A program made the translations under genes and the position numbers. From positions 32,001 to 96,000 of IMG/VR virus record IMGVR_UViG_3300032087_002150: a stretch of DNA of 64,000 nt. One strand, written 5' to 3'. Below are positions 10,983-61,544 of this stretch, in pieces. Each line of letters starts with the position of its first letter. The stretch's first letter is position 1. The notes under the pieces are model-generated. The model saw nothing but the letters and a program-made list of their open reading frames with translations, was not told the DNA's origin and searched no databases. The stretch comes from a virus.

Positions 10983-11005
10983 AAAGGGGAGACCGAAGTC
11001 TCCCC
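10983..11005 (-). terminator. Intrinsic terminator with cUUCGg loop
   Basis: GGGGAGAC-TTCG-GTCTCCCC-TTT on minus strand. Confidence 0.75.
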
Positions 11006-11011
11006 GAGTGT

Positions 11012-11206
11012 TTATGCCTTGTTATTTTCTACTTTGCGCTCTTCCACATAGTGCCAGTCACCAGTCTTTGGATCCTGCACGTGGTTCTCTGCTAGTTTGA
11101 TCATAACGATACGAGTATGCCTCGCCTTGACGACGACTTCCTCGATGTCACTTGCAGTTGCGAAAGTAGAAAAGAAACACAAGGCAACGATTGCCAAGTT
11201 TTTCAT
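11012..11206 (-). CDS. Small secreted protein with TonB-box-like motif
   Basis: Signal peptide ...FATA, then SDIEEVVVKAR. Confidence 0.6.
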   Translation of the reverse strand: MKNLAIVALCFFSTFATASDIEEVVVKARHTRIVMIKLAENHVQDPKTGDWHYVEERKVENNKA

Positions 11207-11207
11207 T

Positions 11208-11654
11208 TCAGTCCTCAGTTAAAAGTTGCTTCTTACCCTTGGTTTTACCGATTGGGATAGCGCGAGGCAGCTTCTCTTTTGGGATCTCTACTTTCAGGTC
11301 AATGACCAGTAGTCCATCCACAAAATCCGCTCCGCTTACAACAACGTGTTCTGACAACCTAAATGTTCGTGTAAACTTCTTAGAAGAAATACCACGGTGT
11401 AGATACTCACGTTCTTCGCTTGACTTGTCACCAGCTACAACTAGGATGCCGTCCTTCACTTCAACAGTGAGGTCGTCTTTGCTGTAACCTGCCAAGGCAA
11501 GTTCTACGGTGAAGTTAACATCATCGTGCTTGACTACGTTATGGGGAGGATAGAGTTTGTTGTCTGCCATGTCTGACAGTCTTTCAATCTCATTCCAAAC
11601 GTGATCGAAACCAATGAAGTGTGAACGTGGAAAAGAAAATGCTTTAGATACCAT
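11208..11654 (-). CDS. hsp20: Small heat shock protein Hsp20 (IbpA-like)
   Basis: FIGFD, YPPHNV, ELALAGY, YLHRGIS..FTRTF.L, DGLL.I.L. Confidence 0.95.
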   Translation of the reverse strand: MVSKAFSFPRSHFIGFDHVWNEIERLSDMADNKLYPPHNVVKHDDVNFTVELALAGYSKDDLTVEVKDGILVVAGDKSSEEREYLHRGISSKKFTRTFRLSEHVVVSGADFVDGLLVIDLKVEIPKEKLPRAIPIGKTKGKKQLLTED

Positions 11655-11760
11655 AACGGATCTCCTTATTTAAAAGCAAGATTGTTGTTATACTCTACCA
11701 GACCATTCTGCGTAGAGAACTGATGACCTGTATCCCACAGTATCATCGGTATTATTTATA
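11652..11760 (-). promoter_or_regulatory. Late promoter plus structured hsp20 5' UTR with ROSE-like hairpin
   Basis: TATAAATA at 11753-60; two upstream hairpins; AUCUUGCUU-loop-AAGGAGAU sequesters the SD. Confidence 0.65.
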
Positions 11761-11894
11761 GTATAATATTTCGCTATGAAAGTAAAGTGGAATATTTACT
11801 GATACTATATAATATTGCAGTAATAAAACTGTAATAAAAACGTAATATTTCGCCGTGAGGCGACGGAGCGTCGTGATGACGCAAGGAGAAATCC

Positions 11895-12170
11895 ATGAAA
11901 AAGATAGCACTCATGTTGCTACTAATCCCTGCTATTGCTAACGCAGATGTGATTCCTACTAGAACACTCGAACCAGTTGTTCGAATCGTCGAAGACACAA
12001 TCTATGTCACTGACAAAAAAGGCAACGACTGGGCGATTGTGACTAACTGTCAAATCAATGCTCGAGAGATCAAAGAGTTCACTGTCCGTGGCAAGGTATT
12101 GAGGTCTGGCAGGGTTGTAAAACTCAGCGACCAGAAGCACTGCGAAATCGAGACTATTCAGGCGGCATAA
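11895..12170 (+). CDS. Secreted hypothetical protein, one of very few plus-strand genes
   Basis: AAGGAG RBS, signal peptide ending ANA; divergent from hsp20. Confidence 0.7.
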   Translation: MKKIALMLLLIPAIANADVIPTRTLEPVVRIVEDTIYVTDKKGNDWAIVTNCQINAREIKEFTVRGKVLRSGRVVKLSDQKHCEIETIQAA

Positions 12171-12504
12171 AACTGTTGTTCTGATTGTATCGATCTAACT
12201 TGGGTTCACCGCCATCTGGCATAGTGCAGGTGATGTTTGCTTTCCTGCCTTCAATGTATCTGACTTGGTACACAAACCAACTGAACGGTTCATTGCAGGC
12301 AGGTTCATAACATCGCCCTGCCATAAAGTATCTGTTTTGTCCAGTAAACCCAATCCTGTCATGAGTATTAAGATAGATGCGTTTGGTGGGATACTCGCTC
12401 TTGATCAAATCCCAACAAGTATCTTTCGCGACTTCGTACATATCGTCCTGCGCATGCGCATGGAATGCACATGCAACAAGGATTGTCGCACTAAACTTTT
12501 TCAT
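12154..12504 (-). CDS. Secreted hypothetical protein
   Basis: Signal peptide MKKFSATILVACAFHAHA; Cys residues in the mature part. Confidence 0.55.
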   Translation of the reverse strand: MKKFSATILVACAFHAHAQDDMYEVAKDTCWDLIKSEYPTKRIYLNTHDRIGFTGQNRYFMAGRCYEPACNEPFSWFVYQVRYIEGRKANITCTMPDGGEPKLDRYNQNNSFMPPE

Positions 12505-13087
12505 AACCAAATATTTCAAAGTCTTGAGCGAACCTTTCGTTGATAAGTTTAACTGACTTATCGGTTAAAAAGTTCAATGCTTTTTCCACATCCCAACCTA
12601 TGGTGTAGTTGAAGTCGTAGTCGTAATCTATCATATCAAACCCCAACTTCTTTAAATCTTCTTCTAGGTTTTCTTGGCGGATAATATCAGGTTCAGTCAG
12701 CAACCCTTCATACCAGTAATAACAAGGTCTCCAAGGTTCCCAATATCCTGGGTGATTAACAATCTTGTCTAGGTAACTCGCAAAATCTTGAGCAGGGTTT
12801 CCTTTCTTTTGTTTTTGTTTAACATCGTATGCCCACATAGAACATACTCTAGGATATGGGTGCCTGACAGGCAATATACAAGGGAAATCTAAACCAAGTC
12901 CATAGAACTTTAATGGGCAATGTTTATCCCAGGATGACGATTGTTTTTCTATGTATTCCCTCATCGGGGAAGTTACCATATGAATATCAGGAAAAATATA
13001 TTCGTGCCTACAAGGATCGTGATCTAATATTATCGCCTTTATTGTTGCCCCTGCTGTTTTGGGAGGATGAAGTAAAAGTTTGGTCAC
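12491..13087 (-). CDS. Sulfotransferase family 2 protein
   Basis: HPPKTAGATI, VRHPYPR..S.W and DFEIFGY motifs. Confidence 0.8.
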   Translation of the reverse strand: MTKLLLHPPKTAGATIKAIILDHDPCRHEYIFPDIHMVTSPMREYIEKQSSSWDKHCPLKFYGLGLDFPCILPVRHPYPRVCSMWAYDVKQKQKKGNPAQDFASYLDKIVNHPGYWEPWRPCYYWYEGLLTEPDIIRQENLEEDLKKLGFDMIDYDYDFNYTIGWDVEKALNFLTDKSVKLINERFAQDFEIFGYEKV

Positions 13088-14079
13088 GCGAAGCTCGCAA
13101 TGATATTCTGCTCCAAAGAGAAGTTAGTTCCCAGCATATGTTTCGTTCTGGCATCAGGGTCATTAGACCAAACCAACACTTCGGGATCATCATAAAGGAA
13201 GTCGCAGTTCTTGCAATATTCAATGTCATCAAACCGTTCTTCTTCGTGCGCCTTACGCAACTCATTATACTTTTCGCCCCAGAAGATTTCCTCGAATGTT
13301 TGATCCTCGAAGTGTCCAAGTACAGACTTTGCCTCGTTGGGTGGACCAAGTGTTTGGCAGCAAGGTGTCATCGCGCCAGTCTTGCCGTTGCCTCCTGCGC
13401 GAATAGTAATCTCTGGTCCAAATGGTCGTCCGCAAGTTTTACGAACATCGCCTATCCTAGCATTCCCATTCGGATCATAGTTTCCTGACCAGTTGTGCAT
13501 CTTCCATATGTATGCCTTACATCCAACGTGTTTAATAAAGTTGCCGTTGTACTCACTGATCTCGTACTTTATTTGATTGTTGTCTGTGATGAGGTGATAC
13601 GAACTTACTTCTACAGGTGCCCTAGTGGTAAAAGAGTAATCCATGGTGTCCATTAGATTGGATCTGACTCTGTAAAAGTTATCACAATCCATCCACTTCT
13701 TATATTTTTCTGCATCATAACCAATGACACTGCAACGAATAAAGTCAATTCCCTCATCGACGATACGCTTCATGTAATCGCCGCGAAGGTTGTACCCATT
13801 AGTGTAGATGTAGCACTTGAGTCCTCGCTTCTTTACTTCACGCACGTATTTGTGTAGGTCTTTCGCGAGCGTGGGTTCGCCCGAACCCTCCAGATTGATT
13901 TGAGGAGTCCCGTATTTCGGAACGATTTGGTCAAGGATATTTGTAAATTGTTTGAGCGGCATCTTCCTAGTCCAGTCTTTACCGCGACCAGGATTCGTTT
14001 GTGGGCACATTTGACAGGTGTAGTTGCACCCACCGATTACTTCTAGTACAACCCTTTCTAGGTTTACATCAAACGACAT
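13084..14079 (-). CDS. Radical SAM protein with SPASM/Twitch domain
   Basis: CNYTCQMC, GSGEP, C-terminal C...PCC...CKNC; start reassigned to MSFDVNL. Confidence 0.88.
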   Translation of the reverse strand: MSFDVNLERVVLEVIGGCNYTCQMCPQTNPGRGKDWTRKMPLKQFTNILDQIVPKYGTPQINLEGSGEPTLAKDLHKYVREVKKRGLKCYIYTNGYNLRGDYMKRIVDEGIDFIRCSVIGYDAEKYKKWMDCDNFYRVRSNLMDTMDYSFTTRAPVEVSSYHLITDNNQIKYEISEYNGNFIKHVGCKAYIWKMHNWSGNYDPNGNARIGDVRKTCGRPFGPEITIRAGGNGKTGAMTPCCQTLGPPNEAKSVLGHFEDQTFEEIFWGEKYNELRKAHEEERFDDIEYCKNCDFLYDDPEVLVWSNDPDARTKHMLGTNFSLEQNIIASFA

Positions 14080-21130: not shown

Positions 21131-21606
21131 TATCTATCTGCCTTAAAACCAAAGGAACAACCAACACGAGGTTCAGTCAATGTAACAACTTCATGTATCG
21201 TGTTCGCAGGAAAGTAAATCGCGTCATTTTCAGAGAGTTTATACTTCATTCCATCTATTTCCCATACTGTCGAACCAACACACTGTATGTATAAAATATC
21301 AGTCTCATCAGAGTGTGCGCCAAATCCAACGAAGTCTGTATCGTAGGCGACATAGAAGTGCGCATCACAGTGAGGAGAATGCGTAGCACTCATTATCTGA
21401 GCACAGAATCGTTTAACGGATTCAGTCGTAATGTAAGCAGTCTGACTACAGTAACCGTGATCGTACAGTTTTATGTTATCAACCGAACGAGCGTAGGTAG
21501 CATCTGCTTCAGCGTCTTCGAGTGTAATGTTCAGATCGTAAAAGTTCGGGAGATATATTACTTCTTCGTTGCGTATCGCAGTTTGTAGATCAAGTGAGAA
21601 GTTCAT
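21130..21606 (-). CDS. JmjC/cupin-like 2OG oxygenase
   Basis: GFGAHSD..D...Q..G...W...IYFP...HEV...R..SFG. Confidence 0.75.
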   Translation of the reverse strand: MNFSLDLQTAIRNEEVIYLPNFYDLNITLEDAEADATYARSVDNIKLYDHGYCSQTAYITTESVKRFCAQIMSATHSPHCDAHFYVAYDTDFVGFGAHSDETDILYIQCVGSTVWEIDGMKYKLSENDAIYFPANTIHEVVTLTEPRVGCSFGFKADR

Positions 21607-22456
21607 AGTTCCTCAACAGGAGTTCCTTACGATTCTTTTCATCCTCGCGATAGTTCTTACCTGAATGTAGTGTGTAGGTCAGATCAAAGGTGTGTTGCTG
21701 CCAGTCATGATACATTGTTTTCAGCAACTCATTGTTATCGTAGGAGATCATCATGTTAGATTTACAGTAAGAAACCTGCGTATGAAACTCCACGTGATCG
21801 AAGTTCTTATGCATGTCACCGTTACGACCGTACAGGAACGATGTACCGTCCTTTCCTACTTTCGCATAGGGTGGATCGAGATAGATAAACGTGTTAGGAT
21901 CATCAATGAGACAGTCAGAGTAGTCAACGTTGGTAATCTTCCAGTTCTTGATATGCTCTCCGTAAAGTAACAGCGAGCGAATGTTATTCTCACTGAAGTT
22001 TGATACGGATGCCTGCTCACTGAAACCTGATGATTCACCCAGACCTGAGAAGGAACACTTGTTACATACCCACCAGCGCCAACCAATATCAAACTTATTG
22101 TTCCATGGTTGACCGCAATCTATTTTCAGTAAATATGCCTTACAGTCCTCGAACAGTTTACGATGACCCACTGCGTCCCTCGCGTCACTTTTGACCTTCA
22201 GAAGCGTTTCTACGAGGTCTGAGGGAGAGTCACGGAGTGTAATCCAGAAGCAATATAGGTTATAATACTTGTCATTGATGTGAATAGGAACGTGAGGGAA
22301 CTGACGTGAAAAGGCGAATGCCATTGACCCGCCACCCACGAAAGGTTCAACGTATTTTCCTATCAGAGAGTTAGGCAGGAACTGAAGCAACGTCTTGGTT
22401 GCTCGAGACTTCCCGCCCATGTATCGAATCGGAGTTTTTAGTTTTCTCGGTAGCAT
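21590..22456 (-). CDS. dam: Dam-family DNA adenine methyltransferase (T4-like orphan)
   Basis: TPIRYMGGKS, EPFVGGG, YLDPPY, MISY. Confidence 0.88.
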   Translation of the reverse strand: MLPRKLKTPIRYMGGKSRATKTLLQFLPNSLIGKYVEPFVGGGSMAFAFSRQFPHVPIHINDKYYNLYCFWITLRDSPSDLVETLLKVKSDARDAVGHRKLFEDCKAYLLKIDCGQPWNNKFDIGWRWWVCNKCSFSGLGESSGFSEQASVSNFSENNIRSLLLYGEHIKNWKITNVDYSDCLIDDPNTFIYLDPPYAKVGKDGTSFLYGRNGDMHKNFDHVEFHTQVSYCKSNMMISYDNNELLKTMYHDWQQHTFDLTYTLHSGKNYREDEKNRKELLLRNYELLT

Positions 22457-35327: not shown

Positions 35328-35941
35328 CAATATTCCAAGAAGGCGATAGCATTACAGTCTTTACCCTGACTGTATGGTTGGATGTAACTTATCTCCCATC
35401 CAGAGTTTCTCGCCGCTAGAAGAACATCTGGTTGATCAATGTTATCTATCAACAATTGCTTCACGCCAAAATCTAAACAACATTTCAAATCAATAACAGT
35501 ATTTTGATATGTGTGCGCGCCATCAATCAAGGCGAAATCAAACGGAGCGGATTTGTCTAGATCAGAGTACGCAAAAATTGTTCGTTGACTAACCCAGTTA
35601 AATCTATCGCCATACTTTTCTTTCATTACCTTTGCCATCATCGCTCTAGTATCTGCTGTGTGTTTTTCTAAATCCTCCGGAACCTCGCCCTTTATTTTCT
35701 TCTTTTGCCTTTCTAAAACATGCTTGGCAACAGATTCATAACCAGGACTCACTGTGGTAACTTTTGCTTGTTTAAAGATTTCAAGTAGGTACGTTGTAGA
35801 GTGACCAAGATGAAATCCTATCTCCAGTATGTTTGTAGGTTCCCACCTGCCTTGTATTTGTTCAAAGAAATCAAAAATATGATTTGTTGGAGGCAAGTGC
35901 CCCCAACCATATTCGAGTTCAACTAGATGATCTAAGTTCAT
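35327..35941 (-). CDS. Class I SAM methyltransferase
   Basis: LEIGFHLGHS, FDFALIDGAH.Y. Confidence 0.8.
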   Translation of the reverse strand: MNLDHLVELEYGWGHLPPTNHIFDFFEQIQGRWEPTNILEIGFHLGHSTTYLLEIFKQAKVTTVSPGYESVAKHVLERQKKKIKGEVPEDLEKHTADTRAMMAKVMKEKYGDRFNWVSQRTIFAYSDLDKSAPFDFALIDGAHTYQNTVIDLKCCLDFGVKQLLIDNIDQPDVLLAARNSGWEISYIQPYSQGKDCNAIAFLEY

Positions 35942-38457
35942 GCGAAAAAATCTTCAAGACTTACTGACTCTTCTTCTTTCCAACCTATCGCCTCAAGCAC
36001 AGGTCGTACCACTGCCAGGAATGCCTTTTCAAACTGCTGTTCATAATCTATGTATTTATGCAACCCAAACTCCTCGGGAAGGAAATCGTAGAAAGCAATG
36101 ATGTTTTCCTTGATAGGGTTCTTTTCGTCAAGGTAGAGAAACTTAATCTTCTCCCCGTCCTTGATTATATTATACCTGCGATCCAATCCTTTGTCAAGCA
36201 ATAGTTTGTTATAAAGCAGAGATCCGCGCACGTGAATGGGGCAACCCTTTTTGTAGATTTCCTTCGCGTCTCTCCACTTACCAACGTCAGATACTCCGCG
36301 AGGAAAGGCAATCTCGTGAGGATCAAGATTGATGAAATGTTCCTTGAACATACGAATAGAGTTTTGCGTTTGCTTTTCAGTTCCCGATATCATGACAGAA
36401 AACAATGCCTTCAAGGCATCACGACAAGAGGCGGGAGTGGATGACTTGACTGCCTCAATACCCATGATCTTTAGTTTGGGTTTGGCATACTGTACACCCT
36501 CGCTGTTATGTACGTTGAGGATGTATCGCTTCTTCGCTGTCCAGATACCTGCGTCAGCGATTACCTCGCGACCCATTACCATCTTGTTCTCATATGCGTT
36601 CATGTACTCGGCAAGTTCATTGTACGATCGCTCGAACAGGGGTTCAAACTTTTCCTCGCCAATCTGCGACAGGATCTGTACAGTCTGATCTGTATCAGTC
36701 AGTCCCATCTTCTCAACGAGAGGACCGAAGTTAACATACACCGAATCAGTGTCAATCGCGATAACGTAGTCAACTCCTTCGGTCTCCAATATCTTGTTCA
36801 TGTATTCGTTGACTGCCTTCTCTGCCCAACGGATAGACAACTGACCTGACATCGTAATCGCTTCTGCCATGCGAATGTCATAGTAACGAAACCAGCGATT
36901 ACCCAACCCACCATAAAGTGAGTTCATCATAATCTTGATCGCCATTTGTTGAGTATCAAGTTTGGTCACCATCTTCGAGGCACCTTTATCACCCTTCTCA
37001 ACTTGAGATTGTAGTCCAAGCATATGCTTCTTTATTTGTTTACGCTCGGCATACAGACCATCAATCACTGCTGGTAGAACACCACGGAAGTCTTTGGAGA
37101 AGTGTACACCGTTGGCGGCGATACAGTCATGCGGCGACTTACTATCGGGTCTCTCCCGAGCGAGGCAGTTATCAACAGTGACACCAGAGGTGCGTGTACT
37201 CACGATAGTCTCAGGCGACATATTATACTGCATGATCAGGTGAGGATACAGACTGTTCAAGTCAAACGAGATAACCCATGAGTGACGACCGATATGCGGT
37301 GCCTTCACATAACCACCACCGAAGTCAGTTTTCATATGTTCTTTCTTGGGCGGCACGACGATCTTGCGTTTACACAGTTCGCGATAGATGTAGGTATCCC
37401 ACAACTGCGTAGTCCCGAATGCTTCCTGATAGTTACAACCACCCTTGTACGCGATAGTCATAGCAAGGTCAATCAAACCCATCTTCTCGTCGATGCGCTC
37501 GACCAACTGGACGTCTTTGATGTTGTAGTCGATAAACTTCTGATAATCTTCCTTGTACAGCGTGTACAGATTACCGTGCTCCTCGTAGGATAGTTTCTTC
37601 TCACCGAGTACAACGTTCGCGATATGATCCAGCTTGTATGACTCCTGTACGCCATACGAGTACACGCCAAACTTTTGAAAGAGATCCCAGTAATCTAGTT
37701 GCTCAATGCCGACCAACTCATAGACCTGCTGCTTTCTACCCTTGAGACTGATTACTTTTTCTCGAACGATACCCCATGGCGACATCTTCTTGAAGGCATC
37801 GCCGCCCAGTATATTGTTGACTCGATTGACAAGATACGGGATATCAAACAGTCGGACGTTCCAACCTGTTACGACATCGGGACAGGTATCTTTACCGTTC
37901 CAGAAACCAAGGAACTTGAGGATGAGATCTAGTTCGCCATCGCACTTGATAAACTTGATATGTTCAGGAGCAACGTCGATCTGAGTTTTCTCAGGATCAT
38001 ACTTGTCTTCAAGTGCCCAGATGAAAAAGTCAGGGCGACCATGATACTTGAGACAGATAGATTGTACTTCTTTTTCTGCTCGCTCAGGTTCAGGGAATCC
38101 GTCATCGGACTCAACCTCGATGTCGATGTTAGCAACGAGAATCTGAGCAGGGTCGTACGATATTTCGTTGGGATAATGCTTCTGTATGTACTGAGCGGCA
38201 AAGTTATTGTTACCGTGTACCTCAACATTATCTACGTTGTCATAGTTCTTCCAGAACTCAGTTGCCTCGGACAACGTTTCAAACTGTACCTCAGACACGC
38301 AACGACCGTCGAGCGTCTTCCACTCGGAGTCTGGTTTATTTGCGGGGAGATACATAACAGGTTTGAAGGTGTCGCGATACTGCTTGCGTACACCGTTCTC
38401 GTATCCTCGGTAGCAAATACTGTTACCGATACGAGAAATATTAGTATAAAACTTCAT
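35938..38457 (-). CDS. 43: Family B DNA polymerase gp43
   Basis: DIEV exonuclease motif, SFDLNSLYP, KIMMNSLYG, IDTDS, KKRY; C-terminal clamp tail SVSLEDFFA. Confidence 0.97.
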   Translation of the reverse strand: MKFYTNISRIGNSICYRGYENGVRKQYRDTFKPVMYLPANKPDSEWKTLDGRCVSEVQFETLSEATEFWKNYDNVDNVEVHGNNNFAAQYIQKHYPNEISYDPAQILVANIDIEVESDDGFPEPERAEKEVQSICLKYHGRPDFFIWALEDKYDPEKTQIDVAPEHIKFIKCDGELDLILKFLGFWNGKDTCPDVVTGWNVRLFDIPYLVNRVNNILGGDAFKKMSPWGIVREKVISLKGRKQQVYELVGIEQLDYWDLFQKFGVYSYGVQESYKLDHIANVVLGEKKLSYEEHGNLYTLYKEDYQKFIDYNIKDVQLVERIDEKMGLIDLAMTIAYKGGCNYQEAFGTTQLWDTYIYRELCKRKIVVPPKKEHMKTDFGGGYVKAPHIGRHSWVISFDLNSLYPHLIMQYNMSPETIVSTRTSGVTVDNCLARERPDSKSPHDCIAANGVHFSKDFRGVLPAVIDGLYAERKQIKKHMLGLQSQVEKGDKGASKMVTKLDTQQMAIKIMMNSLYGGLGNRWFRYYDIRMAEAITMSGQLSIRWAEKAVNEYMNKILETEGVDYVIAIDTDSVYVNFGPLVEKMGLTDTDQTVQILSQIGEEKFEPLFERSYNELAEYMNAYENKMVMGREVIADAGIWTAKKRYILNVHNSEGVQYAKPKLKIMGIEAVKSSTPASCRDALKALFSVMISGTEKQTQNSIRMFKEHFINLDPHEIAFPRGVSDVGKWRDAKEIYKKGCPIHVRGSLLYNKLLLDKGLDRRYNIIKDGEKIKFLYLDEKNPIKENIIAFYDFLPEEFGLHKYIDYEQQFEKAFLAVVRPVLEAIGWKEEESVSLEDFFA

Positions 38458-48529: not shown

Positions 48530-49207
48530 TTATTCTCCATAAGTTGAGGATGGTTCGAGTGCTACGATATATTTGATATCTCCAGTATCTTTCTTCCACT
48601 CGGTGATCATTTTACTGGAAATAGAAACCTCATAGTCGCCCTCAATCATTTTAAGATTGCCGATGTTCGCGACAAGTTTAAAATCATCAATGTCAGATGA
48701 CCCAGGAACGATGAGGTCAAATGAGTTAGAAGTTGGATCAGTCACATCTACAACTGACAACTTGATGCCGTTCTCACTTGGCAGGATACTCATTTTCTCA
48801 TGACCGAGAGCGGATGCTGCTCGGCGAAGTCGATTCAACGTAGTTGAGTTGATATTAAACTTAGCAACTTCATCAGGCAAGGTGATCGACTTTTCAGTGA
48901 AGGTAAGGATCTCCTCAGAAGCATAGTAATACTTACAACTGTTGAGTCCAGTCCCGTCTGAAACTACCAGATGATCGTCATTGAAAGTTAGATGATGATC
49001 ATCCAAGATACTGATTACTGACAAGAACTCTCCCATATCATAAAGACCGAATCGCTTAGGGAAATCCTGATCTAGAGTTGCTTCCGCGAGAATACTTTTA
49101 CCGCCAGATAGACTGTTCAAGGTATTCTGTTCTCGGATCAACATGTTTGGATTAATACTCGCAAAGTTCTGAAGAACCTTTAAAGTGTTTTCATTGAGTT
49201 GCATCAT
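48530..49207 (-). CDS. 45: Sliding clamp gp45
   Basis: TL..L.NFASIN, F.LYD..EFL, NLK...GDY.V.IS, YIVALE. Confidence 0.92.
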   Translation of the reverse strand: MMQLNENTLKVLQNFASINPNMLIREQNTLNSLSGGKSILAEATLDQDFPKRFGLYDMGEFLSVISILDDHHLTFNDDHLVVSDGTGLNSCKYYYASEEILTFTEKSITLPDEVAKFNINSTTLNRLRRAASALGHEKMSILPSENGIKLSVVDVTDPTSNSFDLIVPGSSDIDDFKLVANIGNLKMIEGDYEVSISSKMITEWKKDTGDIKYIVALEPSSTYGE

Positions 49208-49351: not shown

Positions 49352-50014
49352 TCATTTAATAAATGCCCACGTGGAGTCGTATGCTATCAAAGAACGAGGT
49401 TCGTCAAGAGTCTCACGGAACTTACGAACCTGATCACGAACTCCTCGATCATTCCAATCATGCCCAGAAAACAATCCACCTGTTTTGACTTTTGGCCACC
49501 ACTCGCGCAGTTCCCGAGCACATTGCTCTTCACTCAGATAGGCGTCTAAGAAAACGAAGTCTAGACTATCATCTTCAAACTGCTTCACTGCTTCGCTGGT
49601 ATCCATCTCCAAATATTCACCACGATCTTGCGCACCACTGTGGCGAAGGAAATGATATGCCATACCTCGCGCAAGTTCCATCTCCTGAATATTGGTAGTC
49701 TTTCCTGCTCGCGTCCCATCGGTACCAATGTAATCTTCATAGGGAACCCAAGCATCGACACCATATAGTTTTTTGATGTTAGGGCAGCATTGTAGCAAAG
49801 CACAGAATGAGTCGCCACGGTACAAACCAACCTCAGCACCAATGATATCTTCACCCAACGTGCCGATAGTCATAATCAAGGCACGGATATCGGGATAAGT
49901 GATCGTGAAGTTGTAGGGTTTATACCCTTCTTGCTTGGTAAACTGGTCACCAATAGTTGGTTCCAGTTCACGGCGACGGTCAACCCAAGTATCTGGTGGA
50001 TATTTCTTCAACAT
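49352..50014 (-). CDS. Class I SAM methyltransferase (Methyltransf_24-like)
   Basis: GAEVG..RG, DFVFLDA, GG.FSGHD; TTGACA-16-TAGAAT upstream. Confidence 0.82.
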   Translation of the reverse strand: MLKKYPPDTWVDRRRELEPTIGDQFTKQEGYKPYNFTITYPDIRALIMTIGTLGEDIIGAEVGLYRGDSFCALLQCCPNIKKLYGVDAWVPYEDYIGTDGTRAGKTTNIQEMELARGMAYHFLRHSGAQDRGEYLEMDTSEAVKQFEDDSLDFVFLDAYLSEEQCARELREWWPKVKTGGLFSGHDWNDRGVRDQVRKFRETLDEPRSLIAYDSTWAFIK

Positions 50015-50037: not shown

Positions 50038-51174
50038 TCAAATGTCAAGCTCTTCAGAGGAATTATTTTCCTCAGTCTCAACTCTGTCGTCGAGTTTAGT
50101 ATATAGGTCACGGAAGGCAAGTTTTGTCTCATCGTCGAAACGATTCGTGCACATCTCGATGGCAGTCATGCGATCACCAAAGATGGCGAATGCCTTGACG
50201 ATATGAACCAGTCGACGCGTCGAGATGATCTCATCAACGCCACCATCCATAAAAGTCTTGCGAATGATATCCGCCCAGTCGACGAGTTTCTGAATGTAAT
50301 CAGGGTCATTGACCTCAACAGACTCAGCAACCTTGTCGAGAATCCTACGCTCGATAGAAACGGAAGGATACTCCTGCTCACAGGTGATCGGATAACGCTC
50401 AAGGAATGCTTCGTTGAGGATGTTAGTACCGATGAAGCGACCATCGTCAGATCCCTTCCCCTTCGTGTTCGCTGTAGCAACCACGGTGAACCCATGAGCA
50501 GGAGTGATATACTCACCAGTTTTCTTGATGAAGTATCCCTTGCCCTCAAGGATAGACTGAAGACACATGACTTTGGCAGGGTTCGCCAAGTCGATCTCGT
50601 CGCAGAGCAGGACGGCACCCTTCTCCATCGCCTTGATGACTGGTCCCTTGAAAAACTTGGTATCACCGTTGACCAAACGGAAACCACCAATCAGATCGTC
50701 CTCGTCAGTCTCGACGGTGAAGTTGACGCGAATGACTTCGCGTTTGGTCGCGGCACATGCCTGCTCAACCATGTAGGTCTTGCCATTACCAGACAAACCA
50801 GTAATGAAGATAGGATAGAACTGCTTCGACTTGATCACGTCACGCACGGTGCGGAAGTTGCCGAAGGGCACGAACAACGCATCCTTGTTAGGAATCAGGT
50901 TGTGCTCAAACCCATCACTGTCCACGATCAATGAAGCAGTGGGAGCGGGAGCGGGAGCAACCACAACTGGCGCAGCAGGCGCAGAACCATCGACAGCAGG
51001 AATGCGGTACATATTACGACCCACACGTGTATCTTTGTTCAGTGCCCAGTGAGGGAATCCCTGACCGATGTTCTCGGCGGTCTCCACCAGTTCGGCACGT
51101 GAATAGTTCTGCTTTTCACCGAAGTTGGCGATCAGTGCTGAAACCAATTCTTTGCGTTGCTCAATCTTGCTCAT
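50038..51174 (-). CDS. MoxR/CobS-like AAA+ ATPase
   Basis: GLSGNGKT, ETDEDDL.GG, DEID, ATANTKG, NEAFLER, STRRL. Confidence 0.92.
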   Translation of the reverse strand: MSKIEQRKELVSALIANFGEKQNYSRAELVETAENIGQGFPHWALNKDTRVGRNMYRIPAVDGSAPAAPVVVAPAPAPTASLIVDSDGFEHNLIPNKDALFVPFGNFRTVRDVIKSKQFYPIFITGLSGNGKTYMVEQACAATKREVIRVNFTVETDEDDLIGGFRLVNGDTKFFKGPVIKAMEKGAVLLCDEIDLANPAKVMCLQSILEGKGYFIKKTGEYITPAHGFTVVATANTKGKGSDDGRFIGTNILNEAFLERYPITCEQEYPSVSIERRILDKVAESVEVNDPDYIQKLVDWADIIRKTFMDGGVDEIISTRRLVHIVKAFAIFGDRMTAIEMCTNRFDDETKLAFRDLYTKLDDRVETEENNSSEELDI

Positions 51175-51209: not shown

Positions 51210-51270
51210 ATTATGAATGAAAACGTGTCCAAAAGCAAATCTGAAATACTCTAATAGAATCAATAACTTA
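51210..51270 (-). promoter_or_regulatory. sigma70 promoter with IHF-like box
   Basis: TTGCTT(51233-38)-17-CATAAT(51210-15); AATCAA-TAAC-TTA at 51258-70. Confidence 0.75.
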
Positions 51271-53604
51271 GGCAACCTTCGCCACCAAGTCATTGAGCAT
51301 CTTGCGGGACTTCTTGCTACCAACCATTGACTTGCGGAAGGCAGTGCGGAGGCGACTCTTGGTCGCACCCTGTAGGGTATCGTCGATCTTGCTGTCAACA
51401 ATCATCAGGGATGACTTGCGGATCAGGTAGCACTCATCATATCCGACAGCAGGCATAGTGATGAATCCTTCCTTACTGTACTGATGCCAGAGGTCATCCA
51501 TAACAGTCCAATCTTTGAACCCGACCATACTGCCATAGTCACTTTCCATGTGGCGGCGACTGTTCTCAGCGATACGATATCCGATCACGTTGCTACCAGT
51601 TGCATTCTTGTACATGGCGAGAAGCATATCGGTCGCCTGAACATTGCGATAGTCATACTTCTTGTTGCCACGGAAAGTTCGGTTGGTCAACGGGCAGGTG
51701 ATAGTCACATACCCATCGCGATACAGGTTGCTGCGAACAGGACTGTACTGATGACCAACAGCGTCCATCTCGTGAGACATGCCATCCGTCAAGAAGAAGG
51801 TGTTGAGCACGTCGAGTTGATGTTGCTTGCGGAAAGCAATCGCCAAGGGTGTGCCGATAGCGATCGCCTCGTCCATAGGTGTACCGCCAAGACGGAAAGC
51901 ATCAAGTTCAAGGAACCTTCGCGCACAATGCCAGAAAGAACGACCGTTGATGTCGCCGATATTGTTGGCGAGTTCAATCATGCGCTTCTTGCTGACGTTA
52001 CGACAAAACTGAGCAAGCAATGCCTTAGCGATAAGAATCATATCTGGTTTACGCTGATCGCTGCTGAACAACTCAAGGAGGCGACCGTCTTGGACGAGAA
52101 GCGTGCCCTTGTTCATATCACGTTGATCAACAATGTTTCCATGATAGGACAGCGAGTTGGTGAAACCATACACGCGGAAGGGCACGTTGATCTGTCGACA
52201 GAAGTGAGTCAGGAGCAGAGTCTGCTCGACAGTCTCATACATGACGTCGTACATAGAACCTGACATGTCAAGGTACATAATGAAACCATGGTTCTTGCCT
52301 TCAGGTACAATGGTGACTTTCTTAAAGATATCGTCAGAGAACTTGTAGTTGTTCATCTTGACCGTGTCGATGACACCAGTTTTAGAAGTCAAGGAACGAC
52401 GATGTTCGCCAGCAGACTTCTTCATCTCAAACTCTTTGACCATAGCATTGACTGCTTTCTTATTGACACGCGACCACTCGTTGTAGAGCGCAGTGCCAAA
52501 AGTTTCAATCATCTCAAGACGAATCTCGGTCTCTGCCTCAATACGTTCGGAACGCCAAGTTTCTAAATCACGGTCATTTATCTTGTAAGAGATGAGGTCG
52601 CCGTTACGAATCTCATTGACTAAATCCTTGTGCGAGATAACGTAATCGCTCCAGTTGCGAGTGTAGTCATTGACGCGGAGGTTGGTCACCTTACCACCAT
52701 GCGTAGTGTAGATCTCATTGTTGATCGAATCACGCAAGGTCTTGTCGGTGTTAGACATGGGTTCAGCGGGAGCACCACCTGCCTGATCGGAGAAGGAATC
52801 ATAGTCGCCTTCCCACTCACCTTCTTCCTCCTCACCATCTTCATAGTCAGAGGATGTTGGCGAACCTGAGTTGTCGTCGGTGTAGTCGTCACCCTGTTCA
52901 GAAGCAGACTCCCCTGCTTCAGATTCCATGAGTTCTTCATCAGAGTCATCTTCGTCCCAACCCATGGCAGGTTCATCGTCATCCTGCTCCTCGCCTTCTT
53001 CCTCGGCAAGTTCTTGAGCACGTTGCTTCGCTTCTTCCTGTTGCTGCTCAAGTTCTTCCTTACAGAAACCAAACAGGTCGTCGGTGATAGAAACAACGTC
53101 TTCCCAAGTTTCGGCATTTTCAATACGGGGCAACCACTGCTTCTCGTCGTCAGTAAACTTGACGCCAGCAGACATACCGCACTTGAAGTAAGTATTGATG
53201 CGGTCAATCAAACCCATCTGGTTAATCGCGTCGATGTCAGCACCGAAGAAACCATCGGCGAGCAGTTTACGATAAGACTTGATGAAAGGAGCACGCAGAC
53301 CAGGATACTTGCGCTGGATCAACTTCTCGATCCGAGCATCCTCGACCACGTTGAGGAATGACTTGTAACCAGCACCCTTGGCGCATACAGCGTCATGCCA
53401 ACCTTCAAGGGGAGTGTAAAGAGCGTGACCCACCTCGTGACCAATCAGGTGGTCCTCGGTATAAGCAGAAACATCTGCCCACATAGGCAGAGTCAGTACA
53501 CGGTTCTTGACATCAAACATAGCAGTCCGCACGTTGTCCTGTACGACCGTGATGTTCTCGGTCGCTAGAAGTTTGGCGGTAACTGACTTTGCTGCTTGAT
53601 CCAT
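51268..53604 (-). CDS. HEXXH peptidase-like plus vWA (CobT-like) protein
   Basis: GHEVGHAL, NVVEDARIE, acidic linker, MIDAS DMSGSM, GGTP, LTDG. Confidence 0.85.
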   Translation of the reverse strand: MDQAAKSVTAKLLATENITVVQDNVRTAMFDVKNRVLTLPMWADVSAYTEDHLIGHEVGHALYTPLEGWHDAVCAKGAGYKSFLNVVEDARIEKLIQRKYPGLRAPFIKSYRKLLADGFFGADIDAINQMGLIDRINTYFKCGMSAGVKFTDDEKQWLPRIENAETWEDVVSITDDLFGFCKEELEQQQEEAKQRAQELAEEEGEEQDDDEPAMGWDEDDSDEELMESEAGESASEQGDDYTDDNSGSPTSSDYEDGEEEEGEWEGDYDSFSDQAGGAPAEPMSNTDKTLRDSINNEIYTTHGGKVTNLRVNDYTRNWSDYVISHKDLVNEIRNGDLISYKINDRDLETWRSERIEAETEIRLEMIETFGTALYNEWSRVNKKAVNAMVKEFEMKKSAGEHRRSLTSKTGVIDTVKMNNYKFSDDIFKKVTIVPEGKNHGFIMYLDMSGSMYDVMYETVEQTLLLTHFCRQINVPFRVYGFTNSLSYHGNIVDQRDMNKGTLLVQDGRLLELFSSDQRKPDMILIAKALLAQFCRNVSKKRMIELANNIGDINGRSFWHCARRFLELDAFRLGGTPMDEAIAIGTPLAIAFRKQHQLDVLNTFFLTDGMSHEMDAVGHQYSPVRSNLYRDGYVTITCPLTNRTFRGNKKYDYRNVQATDMLLAMYKNATGSNVIGYRIAENSRRHMESDYGSMVGFKDWTVMDDLWHQYSKEGFITMPAVGYDECYLIRKSSLMIVDSKIDDTLQGATKSRLRTAFRKSMVGSKKSRKMLNDLVAKVA

Positions 53605-53689: not shown

Positions 53690-53932
53690 GAAATCGAAAT
53701 GCTCAACGCGAGCATATTCAGGGTATTCAGCGGCGAGTTCTTCGGCATGAACCGCATACTCAAAGAAGAAAGTATGCTGATAGTTGTCAGTCCATGTCTC
53801 GAAATGCCATGCTTTTTTAGGCAGGTGTTCTTTGCACCATTCGCGACCTTCAAAGAATAGGTCAGAGTGCAGGTGGCAAGCAGTTCCTGGTCGCCACCTG
53901 AGTTTGTACTCAAAGATTTCTTGAGGTGTCAA
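53687..53932 (-). CDS. Conserved hypothetical protein
   Basis: TPQEIFEYK.RW...HSD...WCK...T..Y.HT..FE; TTG start. Confidence 0.6.
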   Translation of the reverse strand: MTPQEIFEYKLRWRPGTACHLHSDLFFEGREWCKEHLPKKAWHFETWTDNYQHTFFFEYAVHAEELAAEYPEYARVEHFDF

Positions 53933-54498
53933 AGCATAGACTCCAATGAGTTGTGCTGCCAGTCAGAGATACGATCCCATTGAACTTCCCAGAGCATCTC
54001 CTGACCTTCTTCGTCAAACTCGCGTTCTTCAGGGTCAAAGTGCGCTCGAAGTTCTTCATCGTTCTCGAGGCACATGTCGATAAACTCATCGCTCTCAAGT
54101 TCTTCTTGATCTTCCAGACCGCCAGCATCAAAGACTGCGCAACCAATAAAGTTACAGAACTCGTCTTCATATGTCAAGGCGAGGCGAACGCCAGCATCTA
54201 CCACACCAATCTGTTCAGCAAGGTAAGCGCAGAACTCGATACAGGGTGACCAAGCAGAATACATAGACAGACCATACTCATCATGATCTGTAAGGTATGC
54301 CCACTTCGCGCCAACGAGGTCGCACATATTCTCTCGATTCATATCGTCGTAGGAATCAAAGAAAACAAACCCAAGATGCTTCTCACCACCTTGAGTATCG
54401 TCTCGATCCAATCGACCAAGGATTTCGTTCCAAACCTCACGACCCTTCTCATTCAACTCAGAACGGAGACTGAGGTATTGACTCACATGATTTGCCAT
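53929..54498 (-). CDS. YubB/DUF1281-like protein
   Basis: MANHV...GAKW...SAWSP...YEDE. Confidence 0.6.
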   Translation of the reverse strand: MANHVSQYLSLRSELNEKGREVWNEILGRLDRDDTQGGEKHLGFVFFDSYDDMNRENMCDLVGAKWAYLTDHDEYGLSMYSAWSPCIEFCAYLAEQIGVVDAGVRLALTYEDEFCNFIGCAVFDAGGLEDQEELESDEFIDMCLENDEELRAHFDPEEREFDEEGQEMLWEVQWDRISDWQHNSLESML

Positions 54499-54531: not shown

Positions 54532-54592
54532 ATTCTGCCTGAATAAAACCGCAAAGGCAAATCTAAAAAACTTTAAGATAATCAAGGACTTA
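54532..54592 (-). promoter_or_regulatory. sigma70 promoter with IHF-like box
   Basis: TTGCCT(54555-60)-17-CAGAAT(54532-37); AATCAA-GGAC-TTA at 54580-92. Confidence 0.65.
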
Positions 54593-55399
54593 CGCAAAGA
54601 AATCTTCTAGTGAAACGGAACTAGACTTTTCGTACTTGCCTCCACTCTTATCTCGTAGACGAAGTTCAGCGTGCCCAGTAGAACTACGAATGTACATAGA
54701 GCAAAGATCTGGAAACATCTCAGCAATCTTGGTGATCGAATCATGCACATATTGCTCAGTCCTTATAGTTTGTAGTCCACCTTCCTCTTTGTAATAGTTG
54801 GACTTCACTGTGTATTTATCAAGGCGGCACAGTACACCGTGTTTCACATACTGTCGCAGACTATACTCATAGTCCTCGCCATGATTAGTTACACGATCAA
54901 GGTATTCATCATGATCACAAATGACGCCAAACATAGAAGCAATGATATAACAAAGTTTAGAGTAGACTCGATCCTTCATAAAGTATGCGTTCGCAGCTGC
55001 GTAGATACCAAAAGTTTTAGCACCGAGTTCCTCACAGTTTTTAAACCCCTGTTCAATAATCTCAGTGTAGAGATCATCAATGGGTTCTAGAGTTTTCTCA
55101 TCCTTCCTACGTTGTACCTGTTCAATGTCGTCATCAAACATCATCAGGTAAGTGCCCTCTGGGTAATACTTCTCAATCCAGTTACGTTGAGCACCGATAG
55201 TCGGGACACCAACTACAATGTTGCCTCCATACTTGTGTCCAGCAAGTGCCTCTTTGTATACTGCTTCCTCTTCTTCATTCGCAACGAAAACAGTAACACG
55301 TTCAGGTGGGATGTTATGTTCCTCAAATACCTTGAACGTCTTATCTTGAATAGTCTTAGATCGTTGGTAGGAAGGGCAGGCGATTTGATAATCAATCAT
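54590..55399 (-). CDS. TET-associated (TAGT/GREB1-like) glycosyltransferase
   Basis: PSYQR, RNWI, FDDDI, EDYEYSL, GGLQ; ends SVSLEDFFA. Confidence 0.8.
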   Translation of the reverse strand: MIDYQIACPSYQRSKTIQDKTFKVFEEHNIPPERVTVFVANEEEEAVYKEALAGHKYGGNIVVGVPTIGAQRNWIEKYYPEGTYLMMFDDDIEQVQRRKDEKTLEPIDDLYTEIIEQGFKNCEELGAKTFGIYAAANAYFMKDRVYSKLCYIIASMFGVICDHDEYLDRVTNHGEDYEYSLRQYVKHGVLCRLDKYTVKSNYYKEEGGLQTIRTEQYVHDSITKIAEMFPDLCSMYIRSSTGHAELRLRDKSGGKYEKSSSVSLEDFFA

Positions 55400-55799
55400 T
55401 ACAAACTCTCTTTCTTAAATCACTAGAACTAAATCGGTGGTCTCTTTTGTTAAAGTATAGATCGATGTCACGTTTGCGACAAATATCTTTACCAGTAAAA
55501 TCTTTATCCCGATACTCTTCGCCGAGGATACGCACGTTGATATGATACATCGCTAGGATATCTTCTAGGTCTGCCTCAGTAGAGTATGGGATAATCTCAT
55601 CAACGTAGCGAACTGCTTTGAGTTGAGTGTATCTCTCGACGACAGTTTGAATAGGTTGATTTTTGTTAGGACGGTCAAGAGTCGGGTCTACCTGTAGTCC
55701 ACAAATCAAATAATCACATTGGTCTTTGGCATCACGAAGCATTTGTACATGTCCAGCATGCAGCAAATCAAAAGCACTACAAGTAAACCCAACTCTCAT
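55392..55799 (-). CDS. TagD-like cytidylyltransferase
   Basis: SAFDLLHAGH (HXGH), ERY.QL.A..YVDE, R.H.FSSS.LR. Confidence 0.9.
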   Translation of the reverse strand: MRVGFTCSAFDLLHAGHVQMLRDAKDQCDYLICGLQVDPTLDRPNKNQPIQTVVERYTQLKAVRYVDEIIPYSTEADLEDILAMYHINVRILGEEYRDKDFTGKDICRKRDIDLYFNKRDHRFSSSDLRKRVCND

Positions 55800-57220
55800 C
55801 CGAAAAACTCCTCAAGCGAACCTGCTTGTTGGAAAGCATTAGGATGATATTCCATCAACATGGACTTACCACCCTTCTTTTCAAGGTATTCATACCACTC
55901 AGTCTCATCCCACATGCCAGGGGAGACACCATTCCAATACTCGCGCCATAACTTATGCTCTTTGTTAAGTCGGCGGTCATCAACGTATTGTTTACGATAC
56001 GACTCATACTCCCAAGAACCCAACTTATCCATATCCTCGCGGAAGTAATATACCAGAGACATACGCATCAAGTCATCTTCACCTGAGTCGGGTGCTTCGA
56101 TAGGAGTGTTGCCATGGATCACTCGCATGTTATCAACGAGTAGCAGGTCTCCTGGTCGAACGTTGATAGCAACGCGAACCTCTGGACAAACAAGATAACC
56201 ACCCTTCCAGTTTCGCTTACCGTCACTGATCACAGTCAGGTTTGAGAATCCTGGGACGAGCGAACCTTGGTCACGGTGGCATGCCATACGTGCATTACGA
56301 TCCTTGGTGGTTGTGTTCACTGTAATCGTAGTGAAGGTTGTATCCTCGCCGATCAAGAAACGGTTGTCCAATCTATCAGCAAATGCTTTCTGCTTGCTGT
56401 ATCGTTCAGGAAGCAACTCGGCGAAAGTCTTGTCGAGTTTACGAGCGAACGGATATGACTTCTCAAACTTCTCACGGTTGTGGTCAACGTATGAAGTCGC
56501 CCGACCATATGGGATACGTGGGTATCGACCATAGAAACCTGCGATACCTGACCAGATAGCAGTCGCATAAGAAGTATCGGAGATCATGGTATCACGAACA
56601 CGCTGAGCATATATTGATGCTGCATGAATATCTGGAGAATAACCAAGACCCTTGGTCAACTCAGAAAGTCGCACCATTAGTTTCGGAAAGAACCCATCAT
56701 ACTCGCCGAACTCTTTCTCAATAGCAGTCGTCAACCAAACTTCGCCTCTCGCCTGCTCATCGTTGCTGCTTTTAGCAATCTCTTCCAACGGATCAGATCC
56801 GTCGATGCTTGGCGGTTGCCCTTTGATGTACCAATCGAGGACTCTACTTTGAAACGCAGTGACCCACTCGCGACCATATGACTTGCCTTCCCTCGGACCT
56901 GCTGCTAGACCACGATTGTTCGACTCAACTGCTGCGCCATACAACCCTTCAAGAGCACCGTCCTGTTCTTCCTGAGTAAACACACCCTTGCGGAACTTAA
57001 ACGCAATACGATCCTCGTTTAGAGTATCACCTGTCAACGAGTTACTCGGAAGATAAAAATCTGTATCTCTATCAATCAAGATGTCATAGTGTTCCTCGTC
57101 AACAAACTGACCAAGGACTTTGTCTTCAGACTCTATGAAGTTAGCAATGTATACATCTTGACCTTCGTCACCAGTGAACCAGTCCCAAGTGTAGTTTCCG
57201 TGTTTGATTTTTTCGTTCAT
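55796..57220 (-). CDS. TET/JBP-family 2OG-Fe(II) nucleic-acid dioxygenase
   Basis: FTTITVN, ACHRD.G, GGYL..PE...A.N..PGDLL, HGNTPI, RMSLV.YFRE; ends SLEEFFG. Confidence 0.85.
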   Translation of the reverse strand: MNEKIKHGNYTWDWFTGDEGQDVYIANFIESEDKVLGQFVDEEHYDILIDRDTDFYLPSNSLTGDTLNEDRIAFKFRKGVFTQEEQDGALEGLYGAAVESNNRGLAAGPREGKSYGREWVTAFQSRVLDWYIKGQPPSIDGSDPLEEIAKSSNDEQARGEVWLTTAIEKEFGEYDGFFPKLMVRLSELTKGLGYSPDIHAASIYAQRVRDTMISDTSYATAIWSGIAGFYGRYPRIPYGRATSYVDHNREKFEKSYPFARKLDKTFAELLPERYSKQKAFADRLDNRFLIGEDTTFTTITVNTTTKDRNARMACHRDQGSLVPGFSNLTVISDGKRNWKGGYLVCPEVRVAINVRPGDLLLVDNMRVIHGNTPIEAPDSGEDDLMRMSLVYYFREDMDKLGSWEYESYRKQYVDDRRLNKEHKLWREYWNGVSPGMWDETEWYEYLEKKGGKSMLMEYHPNAFQQAGSLEEFFG

Positions 57221-59887: not shown

Positions 59888-60945
59888 GAGATTTCCATAG
59901 TTTGCGCTTCTACCATCAAGTCTGTCATTTCTTTCTTGATACGTTCTTTATCTAAGATAGTTTCAACGTTGTCAACATACTGTGATAGCAAAGTAGATGT
60001 ATCTTCAACTTCAAGTCCTTCGTCGCTTACCGACTCACCAGTAAACTCATTGAAGTCCTCTTGTATTTTAAGATCATAGATATCGCGTTGCTGAATCCTG
60101 TCGATGAATCTCTCGAAAGTAAACCCATCGGTCTTATTAATCACAACAACCTTCACGAACCTCTTGTCCAGTATGGACAAGTCCATCTCGTTGTAATCTT
60201 CCTTCTCATCATCATAGCGAATGCGATGGAAAAGTGTCAGCGGATTACGAACAGGAGTTAGTTCGCGAGTCTCAGTATCAAACACATGAAAGAACTTGTC
60301 ATCATGTGCATCATTCCAAAAGAACTCCATCTGAGAACCAAGGTAATGAATGTTGCCTTGATTAGACTTACAGTGATAATGTCCAGAGAGTACCAACTCA
60401 AACCTGCGTAGATTATCAGTAGACATACCGTGAGTACAAGGCACGCCCCGAAGCATATCAAACCCATTCAACTCAAAGTGACCGCCTACAACATCTGCCT
60501 TACAGTTTACTAGAAACTCATTTATTTCTTCCTCATTGTCTTGGCATATCCAAGGAACCAAAGCAAACTTCAACCCATCATAATCAAGGACAGTTGCTTG
60601 TTGTACAATGTTCACCTCGTTCATGTAATGACCGAGCAGTTCCTTCAATGAGTTGAGTTCGTTGGTATTCTTATAATAGGTGTCATGATTACCAGGAATG
60701 ATGTCCATCGTAATCTTATCTTTACGCAACCTTTCAAGAAACACCTTACGATTACTGTTCAGTGCTTTGAAGTTAATGAACCTTCGGTGTTCGTAATAGT
60801 CACCAAGGTGCACGATATGTTTGATGTCGTTCTCTTCCAGATATGGAAAGAACACTTCGTTATAGAAGCGTTCTTGGTAATCTATAAAAATATCTGAAGA
60901 GTTCCTGATACCACAATGGGTATCGTTTAGTATGGCAAACTTCAA
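59884..60945 (-). CDS. 47: Recombination endonuclease gp47 (Mre11-like)
   Basis: DTHCG, HLGD, PGNHD, SGHYH. Confidence 0.96.
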   Translation of the reverse strand: MKFAILNDTHCGIRNSSDIFIDYQERFYNEVFFPYLEENDIKHIVHLGDYYEHRRFINFKALNSNRKVFLERLRKDKITMDIIPGNHDTYYKNTNELNSLKELLGHYMNEVNIVQQATVLDYDGLKFALVPWICQDNEEEINEFLVNCKADVVGGHFELNGFDMLRGVPCTHGMSTDNLRRFELVLSGHYHCKSNQGNIHYLGSQMEFFWNDAHDDKFFHVFDTETRELTPVRNPLTLFHRIRYDDEKEDYNEMDLSILDKRFVKVVVINKTDGFTFERFIDRIQQRDIYDLKIQEDFNEFTGESVSDEGLEVEDTSTLLSQYVDNVETILDKERIKKEMTDLMVEAQTMEIS

Positions 60946-60947
60946 AA

Positions 60948-61544
60948 CTATTCCTCTAGGAATTCTGTGAGGTCTGAGTCAACTTGATATGATTTTTTAC
61001 GATTAGCGACCTTGGTCACTTTCTTATACTCATCAACTGCTTTGTCTTTTTCTTTCACGTCATCAATGCGGCGACGAAGATTATCAACAAAGGACTGCAC
61101 TGCTTTTGCTACTTGCGGATCTTCGTCAGGGTCAACCATAAACTCTTCGATGCCTGACTCAGCAAGGAACTTTAGTTTTACGTCTTGTTGTTTCTTTTCT
61201 TTCTTGATACGACGAATGAACGCAAACCAAGAGATCTGAGTAAAGTATCCGAATGCGTTTGGTTTACCCTTTCTAGTTGCTGCTTCAATGTTGTAGTTCC
61301 CCACAGCATTCAAACAGTTTTCAACTGCGTCCATCACCATTTCTTCACGATAGGTGTATCGGACAAAGTTTGATTTATGCGAAAGACCTTCAGCAATTTT
61401 TAGAAAGCAGCGAGCAATGTAATCGGTAACCATCGGATCGGGTTGATTCTTTTCCCTCGCCTCTCTAACGGTCTTTACATAATCTACGACTGCTTGTGAA
61501 AACTCTTTGTTATTCACATAATGTGGACGTTCGCTCGGTTTCAT
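60948..61544 (-). CDS. 55: Late sigma factor gp55
   Basis: HYVNNKEF, NF.RYTYREEM..DA.EN, NAF.YFTQI; TTGACA-17-TACAAT at 61573-61601. Confidence 0.95.
   Translation of the reverse strand: MKPSERPHYVNNKEFSQAVVDYVKTVREAREKNQPDPMVTDYIARCFLKIAEGLSHKSNFVRYTYREEMVMDAVENCLNAVGNYNIEAATRKGKPNAFGYFTQISWFAFIRRIKKEKKQQDVKLKFLAESGIEEFMVDPDEDPQVAKAVQSFVDNLRRRIDDVKEKDKAVDEYKKVTKVANRKKSYQVDSDLTEFLEE

Follow-up and report, generated by a model that had tools for sequence, protein, structure and literature searches.

The stretch of viral DNA analysed here (the window, 64,000 nucleotides corresponding to bases 32001-96000 of the 151,660-bp single-contig genome of a T4-like phage with an estimated completeness of 84%) encodes two DNA-modifying enzymes that end in the same type of peptide as the phage DNA polymerase gp43. 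These are a DNA dioxygenase of the TET/JBP (5mYOX) family (TET; 55796-57220, minus strand, 474 amino acids (aa)) and a TET-associated glycosyltransferase with GT-A fold (TAGT, here abbreviated GT; 54590-55399, minus strand, 269 aa). From sequence comparison we suggest, with a probability of about 0.78, that their C-terminal [ST]-L-[DE]-x-F-F(-x) peptides are clamp motifs of the T4/RB69 type which would tether post-replicative hypermodification to the sliding clamp gp45. Motif and clamp as such have been known before whereas the client class, namely DNA base-modifying enzymes, is new. The nearest deposited relative of this phage genome is Phage C48C1 (Kyanoviridae).

Terminal peptides of the polymerase and the modifying enzymes

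The reference clamp-binding tail is that of the family-B DNA polymerase gp43 (35938-38457, minus strand, 839 aa; PF00136 and PF03104 (DNA_pol_B), phrog_262). Its last nine residues SVSLEDFFA (35941-35967, minus strand; protein end ...EESVSLEDFFA) are identical in all nine positions with the C-terminus of GT (54593-54619, minus strand; ...SSSVSLEDFFA), and the ending GSLEEFFG of TET (55799-55822, minus strand; ...QQAGSLEEFFG) shares SLE-FF with both. The late sigma factor gp55 (60948-61544, minus strand, 198 aa; phrog_234 at 8e-51) has the variant tail DLTEFLEE (60951-60974, minus strand; ...DSDLTEFLEE). These four endings, from which the original prediction had started, are exact in the sequence. 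It had also stated that the cytidylyltransferase-like (TagD-like) enzyme (55392-55799, minus strand, 135 aa; PF01467 at 6.7e-14, phrog_7878) has no such tail, and its C-terminus indeed reads ...DLRKRVCND.

The tail occurs more often than expected by chance. Among the 223 non-nested open reading frames (ORFs) of the 151.7-kb genome the strict motif [ST]L[DE][DE]F[FLY] is present exactly three times and always at the extreme C-terminus, i.e. in gp43, GT and TET. At the DNA level the pattern L-[DE]-x-F-F-x-stop was seen five times in the window versus 0.12 ± 0.33 times in shuffled sequences, with three of the five located at the gene ends of gp43, GT and TET, and a stricter DNA pattern was seen three times versus 0.00. 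The scan of C-termini proposed with the original prediction thus left unrelated non-DNA proteins without the tail, apart from a single loose match that fails the strict motif. This is the baseplate-hub protein (phrog_150; G000:C1:147138-147869, minus strand, outside the window), which alone among the structural proteins shows a loose resemblance at its C-terminus (LKGLTDFF). This ending is probably a coincidence, and the protein was rejected as a clamp binder.

Several other candidates were discarded as well. An 88-aa ORF (8482-8748) ending NLEIFLA is only a loose match and belongs to no matched family. The plus-strand matches of the DNA pattern at 1716-1736 and 59935-59955 are antisense to genes and neither ends a plausible gene; opposite the former, the minus strand codes for LEEKLFK. 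Directly downstream of GT a 189-aa protein without assigned family is encoded (53929-54498, minus strand), which shows an invariant MANHV N-terminus and the motifs GAKWA, SAWSP and YEDE. It was rejected as a fourth tail-bearer since only relatives with 70% identity or more retain its ending NSLESML, more distant homologues having unrelated ones.

For the two enzymes the tail is conserved among orthologues, as anticipated. The orthologue sets comprised 120 cluster representatives each (61-97% identity for TET, 63-97% for GT), and with conservation defined as [ST]LxxF[FLYW] followed by zero or one residue the tail is present in 115/120 clusters of TET and in 110/120 clusters of GT. Most of the remaining GT orthologues have near variants (e.g., DLQAFFG or SLEDLF), and F occupies the second aromatic position of the motif-bearing tails with only two or three exceptions. 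Across the orthologues the positions ahead of the motif are variable and contain insertions and deletions. In the GT alignment (A1) conservation of the catalytic domain extends to D250; a linker of variable length and sequence (residues 251-260) comes next and finally the conserved tail. The AlphaFold2 model of GT (predicted local distance difference test, pLDDT, 90; predicted template modelling score, pTM, 0.87) loses confidence over the last 19 residues (251-269) and contains a short helix at 264-267, and that of TET (pLDDT 86) has low confidence over the last 14 (461-474). In these models the motif adopts a short helical turn and the tails lie outside the confident folds. By alignment and modelling, the tails of GT and TET are built like a short linear motif attached through a flexible linker. 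In 20 related IMG/VR loci the gp55 tail has the form DLS[DASN]F[LF]E[EG]. In a set of representatives covering the entire TET family at 50% identity, almost all members of the full-length clade have a variant of the tail, and the distant TET/JBP cores of about 300 residues are mostly without.

Two unrelated proteins of one genome share nine identical residues, and one may ask whether recent recombination or gene conversion has transferred the 3' end of gene 43 to the GT gene. This origin is practically impossible. Seven of the nine codons differ between the two nonapeptides, among them AGT versus TCA for a serine, and the two genes have different stop codons and unrelated downstream DNA. The match therefore exists at the peptide level and does not stem from a recent DNA copy, an origin that is refuted at the nucleotide level. 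Additionally, the motif is found with many sequence variants in the 110 GT orthologue clusters already mentioned. The particular residues of GT in SV-SLEDFF-A are rare at those positions among its orthologues, yet they match the polymerase of the same phage.

Co-variation of the tails and their link to gp45

The presumed docking partner is the sliding clamp gp45 (phrog_223 at 1e-61). Its identity as given in the original prediction was corroborated by PF09116 and by matches to gp45 of RB69 (1b77/1b8h, 7.6e-16) and T4 (1czd, 7e-12). The span had to be corrected: instead of 48530-49207 (minus strand) we give 48530-49204 (minus strand), since the alignment begins at Met16 of the ORF and this is most likely the start.

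The hydrophobic pair of the tail is usually FF. In two lineages gp43 has LF instead and the modifying enzymes there have LF too: Cr30 with DLSSLFD in gp43, ATLF in TET and DLSKLF in a TAGT-like GT, and the 220-kb T4-like contig L100 with ITLDDLFG in the C-terminal part of a split gp43 and NSLDDLFG in TET. In seven genomes of the FF type TET has FF or FL, and in the IMG/VR genome G004 gp43 and TET have STLEGFFS in common. The TET gene of contig L100 is located between the two gp43 halves directly after the N-terminal part (8550-13293).

The tail of TET tracks the presence of the gp45 gene. All six of the examined phages or contigs that encode gp45 have a tailed TET, namely the window phage, C48C1 (ISLEEFFV), DLP6 (ATLGDFFV), Cr30 (GATLF), Melnitz (NLNDFLGE) and contig L100. 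The Melnitz enzyme belongs to a distant clade and its gene adjoins a C5-methyltransferase gene. Among the five phages without a gp45 match (S-CBWM1, HTVC112P, P12024L, Donny and Altadena) no TET has the tail, and the TAGTs of Donny and Altadena are tail-less as well; the ending of the S-CBWM1 TAGT (HELEDLLP) is ambiguous. An exact test of 6/6 versus 0/5 gives about 0.002, a value that is not corrected for shared ancestry. Two distant tail-positive TETs are found on T4-like contigs, one together with gp45, gp44, gp62, RegA, UvsX and gp41 and the other with UvsY and UvsW.

A ParB-like gene adjoins the tail-less TET in the gp45-less phages HTVC112P (L051), Donny (L054) and Altadena (L055). ParB is a CTP-dependent DNA clamp. 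This arrangement agrees with the ParB-dependent subclass described in the literature and hints at two alternative partners of the clamp type.

The relatives of the phage contain further tail carriers. Five T4-like genomes were scanned with a DNA pattern that catches only L[DE]xFF(x)-stop, and wherever a match coincided with a real gene end, the gene was that of gp43 or of a DNA-modifying enzyme; matches in Cr30 and one in Melnitz that were not at gene ends were rejected. Tail endings in the relatives include ATLEDFFG in a GT-B glycosyltransferase and SLEAFL, TLEAFF or SLEEWF in GNAT-like acetyltransferases, and further TAGTs are tailed too. The D12 N6-adenine methyltransferase of C48C1 (L005:3995-4879), encoded just after gp43, has a 13-residue extension ending STLDAFFG, and its homologue in the window (21590-22456, minus strand) stops short of this extension. 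In Melnitz-3 a protein with the annotation DUF465 (MZ577098.1 69571-70380; L092:572-1381) gives a match to the Mom DNA-modification family (PF25680, 7e-49), and its ending ...LEGFF is of the polymerase type. These unrelated DNA-acting folds (GT-B, GNAT-like, D12 and Mom-family) appear to have acquired the tail independently, which we count in favour of clamp tethering.

Short acidic-aromatic C-termini can mediate other interactions. The peptide might therefore serve another partner, oligomerisation, stability or turnover and merely resemble the polymerase tail, and the ending of the baseplate hub could be cited in support. We consider this improbable because the tail is identical or nearly identical to that of the phage's own gp43, because its LF variant co-varies and because it is found only where the gp45 gene is present. 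Furthermore, position and pattern match the RB69/T4 motif (PMC6212786). Conservation, restriction to DNA proteins, tracking of gp45 and co-variation of LF are the sequence-level tests proposed for clamp tethering, and all of them were favourable.

Enzyme families and the proposed mechanism

TET matches PF12851 (Tet_JBP) at 4.3e-15 with 55.8 bits (cut-off 34.9), and its best fold matches are CcTet, NgTET1 and TET2. The iron triad and the arginine binding 2-oxoglutarate (H315, D317, H369 and R386) are invariant (alignment A2). GT matches PF20691 (TAGT) at 1.2e-16 with 61.8 bits (cut-off 27.5) and phrog_842, and no match to PF11440, the family of T4 alpha-glucosyltransferase (AGT), was obtained. 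Its fold corresponds to GT-A and D89, D90 and D91, which form an acidic DxD-type motif, are invariant. The genes of TET (55796-57220), the cytidylyltransferase (55392-55799) and GT (54590-55399) overlap as one string. The cytidylyltransferase is presumed to make the activated donor.

In the 84%-complete genome no match was found to PF00145 (C5-cytosine methyltransferase), PF00303 (ThyA/dCMP-hydroxymethylase) or ParB (PF02195). For this reason thymine is favoured as target, and from its gene context TET is probably an enzyme that converts thymine to 5-hydroxymethyluracil (5-hmU). ParB-independent phage 5mYOX enzymes are post-replicative thymine dioxygenases (PMC13229309), and this precedent makes oxidation of thymine to 5-hmU with subsequent glycosylation likely.

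The original prediction had preferred DNA to a surface glycan as acceptor of GT. The opposite view, in which GT acts on a teichoic-acid-like or other surface glycan and its tail is irrelevant for DNA modification, could refer to the closest solved folds, which are the wall-teichoic-acid and rhamnosyl GT-A enzymes TarP, TarS and RmlT, and to the adjoining TagD-like cytidylyltransferase gene. It is nevertheless quite improbable because GT is a member of the TAGT family, is encoded in one overlapping string with TET and has a conserved polymerase-type tail. PF20691 is also the family of the T-even beta-glucosyl-HMC alpha-glucosyltransferase (PMC13216743). Family membership together with the tail favours DNA as acceptor.

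In the proposed mechanism the tails of TET and GT would dock in the hydrophobic pocket of a gp45 subunit at the site that is used by the gp43 tail. By this docking the enzymes would be put on the trimeric clamps that the phage clamp loader sets on replicating phage DNA. The clamp-held dioxygenase would oxidise a 5-methylpyrimidine in duplex DNA, probably thymine to 5-hmU, and GT could then decorate the hydroxymethyl group; its activated donor would come from the untailed cytidylyltransferase. Inferred in this scheme are docking on gp45, action at the fork or behind it, selectivity for phage over host DNA, the base and the donor.

Several points weigh against this mechanism. Two D12 N6-adenine DNA methyltransferases of the window (the above-mentioned 21590-22456 and 9395-10243, both minus strand) have no tail, and the same is true for ADDT, a kinase and a GATase adjoining a tailed TET in contig L101. 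A single inheritance may account for the tail throughout the close TET clade, so that the contingency counts are not phylogenetically independent. The genome record is about 84% complete, and a C5 methyltransferase can be called absent only provisionally. Since published ParB-independent phage T-dioxygenases need no partner for activity (PMC13229309), catalysis probably does not depend on the tail. Finally, the interaction of T4 alpha-glucosyltransferase (alpha-GT) with gp45 is not the main determinant of the modification level or of the alpha/beta ratio in vivo (PMC13216743), and because clamp binding had such minor weight there, the size of the functional effect should not be assumed to be large.

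The latter observation could also be taken to mean that the tails do bind gp45 but mainly regulate, for example by competing with gp43, gp55 or gp33 and thereby timing replication or late transcription, or by marking clamps on modified DNA. The clamp has only three sites, gp55 is tailed in this phage as well, and binding of T4 alpha-GT has little effect on modification ratios (PMC13216743). We regard such a mainly regulatory role as improbable too, since the carriers are specifically catalytic enzymes of DNA modification, spread over six unrelated folds, for which a shared need to reach DNA is the simpler explanation, and since the pattern scans showed no tailed small regulator-like proteins. 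Tethering of the modifying enzymes to gp45 is preferred.

The window genes are almost all encoded on the minus strand. A homologue of gp33 was not identified; candidates of 76, 88 and 108 aa are without PHROG match. Between gp45 and the TET module there are genes for a Methyltransf_24 protein (49352-50014, minus strand), an AAA ATPase annotated as porphyrin biosynthesis (50038-51174, minus strand; phrog_249) and a 778-aa protein annotated as peptidase/cobalamin-biosynthesis-like (51268-53604, minus strand; phrog_459). The latter two are a CobS/CobT-like pair.

Comparison with known systems and meaning for phage biology

Clamp motifs of T4 and RB69 are well described. The motifs of gp43, gp55, gp33 and DNA ligase bind to a hydrophobic pocket on gp45 (PMC6212786, PMC7892883); T4 gp43 ends with EKASLDFLFG and binds gp45 through this peptide (PMC6212786), and the clamp-binding motif of T4 gp55 was also described (PMC7892883). 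Like the motifs of gp43, gp55 and gp33 (RB69 clamp-peptide structure 1B8H) the tails presented here are extreme C-terminal peptides of the S/T-L-acidic-aromatic type, joined by a flexible linker, and the phage has a gp45 gene. The gp43 and gp55 of the window carry the clamp motif as those of T4 do, and in T4 DNA ligase it is an internal loop. In contrast with T4 and RB69 the additional carriers are a base-modifying TET/JBP enzyme and a TAGT instead of replication and transcription proteins, the binding being predicted here, and locally the consensus reads [ST]L[DE]xFF in place of SLDFLF.

To our knowledge, T4 alpha-GT is the only DNA glycosyltransferase with published gp45 binding. Sommer et al. 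reportedly described this interaction in 2004. The enzyme co-purifies with gp45 and its clamp binding was demonstrated in vitro (PMC13216743). Like the window GT it is a DNA glycosyltransferase of a T4-type phage, and its physical association with the clamp gave rise to the notion that DNA is modified right behind the fork. Unlike the window GT it is a GT-B enzyme (PF11440) which is unrelated to TAGT and ends with ...KEQFDIITK, that is without a polymerase-type tail; T4 beta-GT has no tail either. An internal sequence of T4 alpha-GT (L098:1402-2604, minus strand), VSLFDDIEE, is similar to SLFDMF, the pattern of the RB69 polymerase tail, and speculatively might be the contact of this enzyme to gp45. 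A further difference is that 5-hydroxymethylcytosine is incorporated before replication in T4 and therefore no DNA dioxygenase is involved.

With respect to enzyme families and gene neighbourhood the window system corresponds to the phage 5mYOX (TET/JBP)-GT hypermodification pathways (PMC8256090; bioRxiv 10.1101/2023.12.21.572611; PMC13229309; PMC8989533). In these pathways 5-methylpyrimidines are oxidised after replication and then glycosylated, with a thymine-directed reading in cases that lack a C5 methyltransferase, and a ParB-like activator is described for another subclass (same references). The searched literature on phage TET/5mYOX enzymes and DNA glycosyltransferases does not mention a clamp-binding tail. 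In at least one study the phage TETs and GTs were assayed with C-terminal His tags (PMC8256090), and the tag position is not stated in PMC13229309. A C-terminal His tag would continue the chain beyond the tail, which would thus lose its terminal position.

In eukaryotes the DNA methyltransferase DNMT1 is coupled to PCNA via a PIP box. As in the proposed phage system a DNA-modifying enzyme is brought to the replication clamp by a short linear motif. The two differ in clamp and motif, DNMT1 has its role in maintenance methylation, and there is no evolutionary relationship.

At least six unrelated families may have gained the tail independently (two TET/JBP clades, TAGT, GT-B, GNAT, D12 and Mom). 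It is conceivable, though we hold it to be tentative and rather doubtful at present, that clamp tethering organises post-replicative phage hypermodification in general, with the trimeric clamp as a tool-belt that aligns successive steps on newly synthesised phage DNA and with a ParB-like partner as equivalent in phages without gp45.

If tethering of TET and GT to gp45 is true, it would explain how post-replicative enzymes reach phage DNA fast enough against host nucleases, and it may spare host DNA. The phage TETs and GTs of the studies cited for His tags were all assayed without clamp, and their native processivity and sequence coverage may be underestimated. Cognate clamp and clamp loader could improve phage TETs and GTs as reagents, and the tail offers a cheap sequence marker for DNA-acting enzymes among the unannotated genes of T4-like phages. 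The clamp tool-belt would extend from replication and transcription to base modification and would represent a viral counterpart of DNMT1-PCNA.

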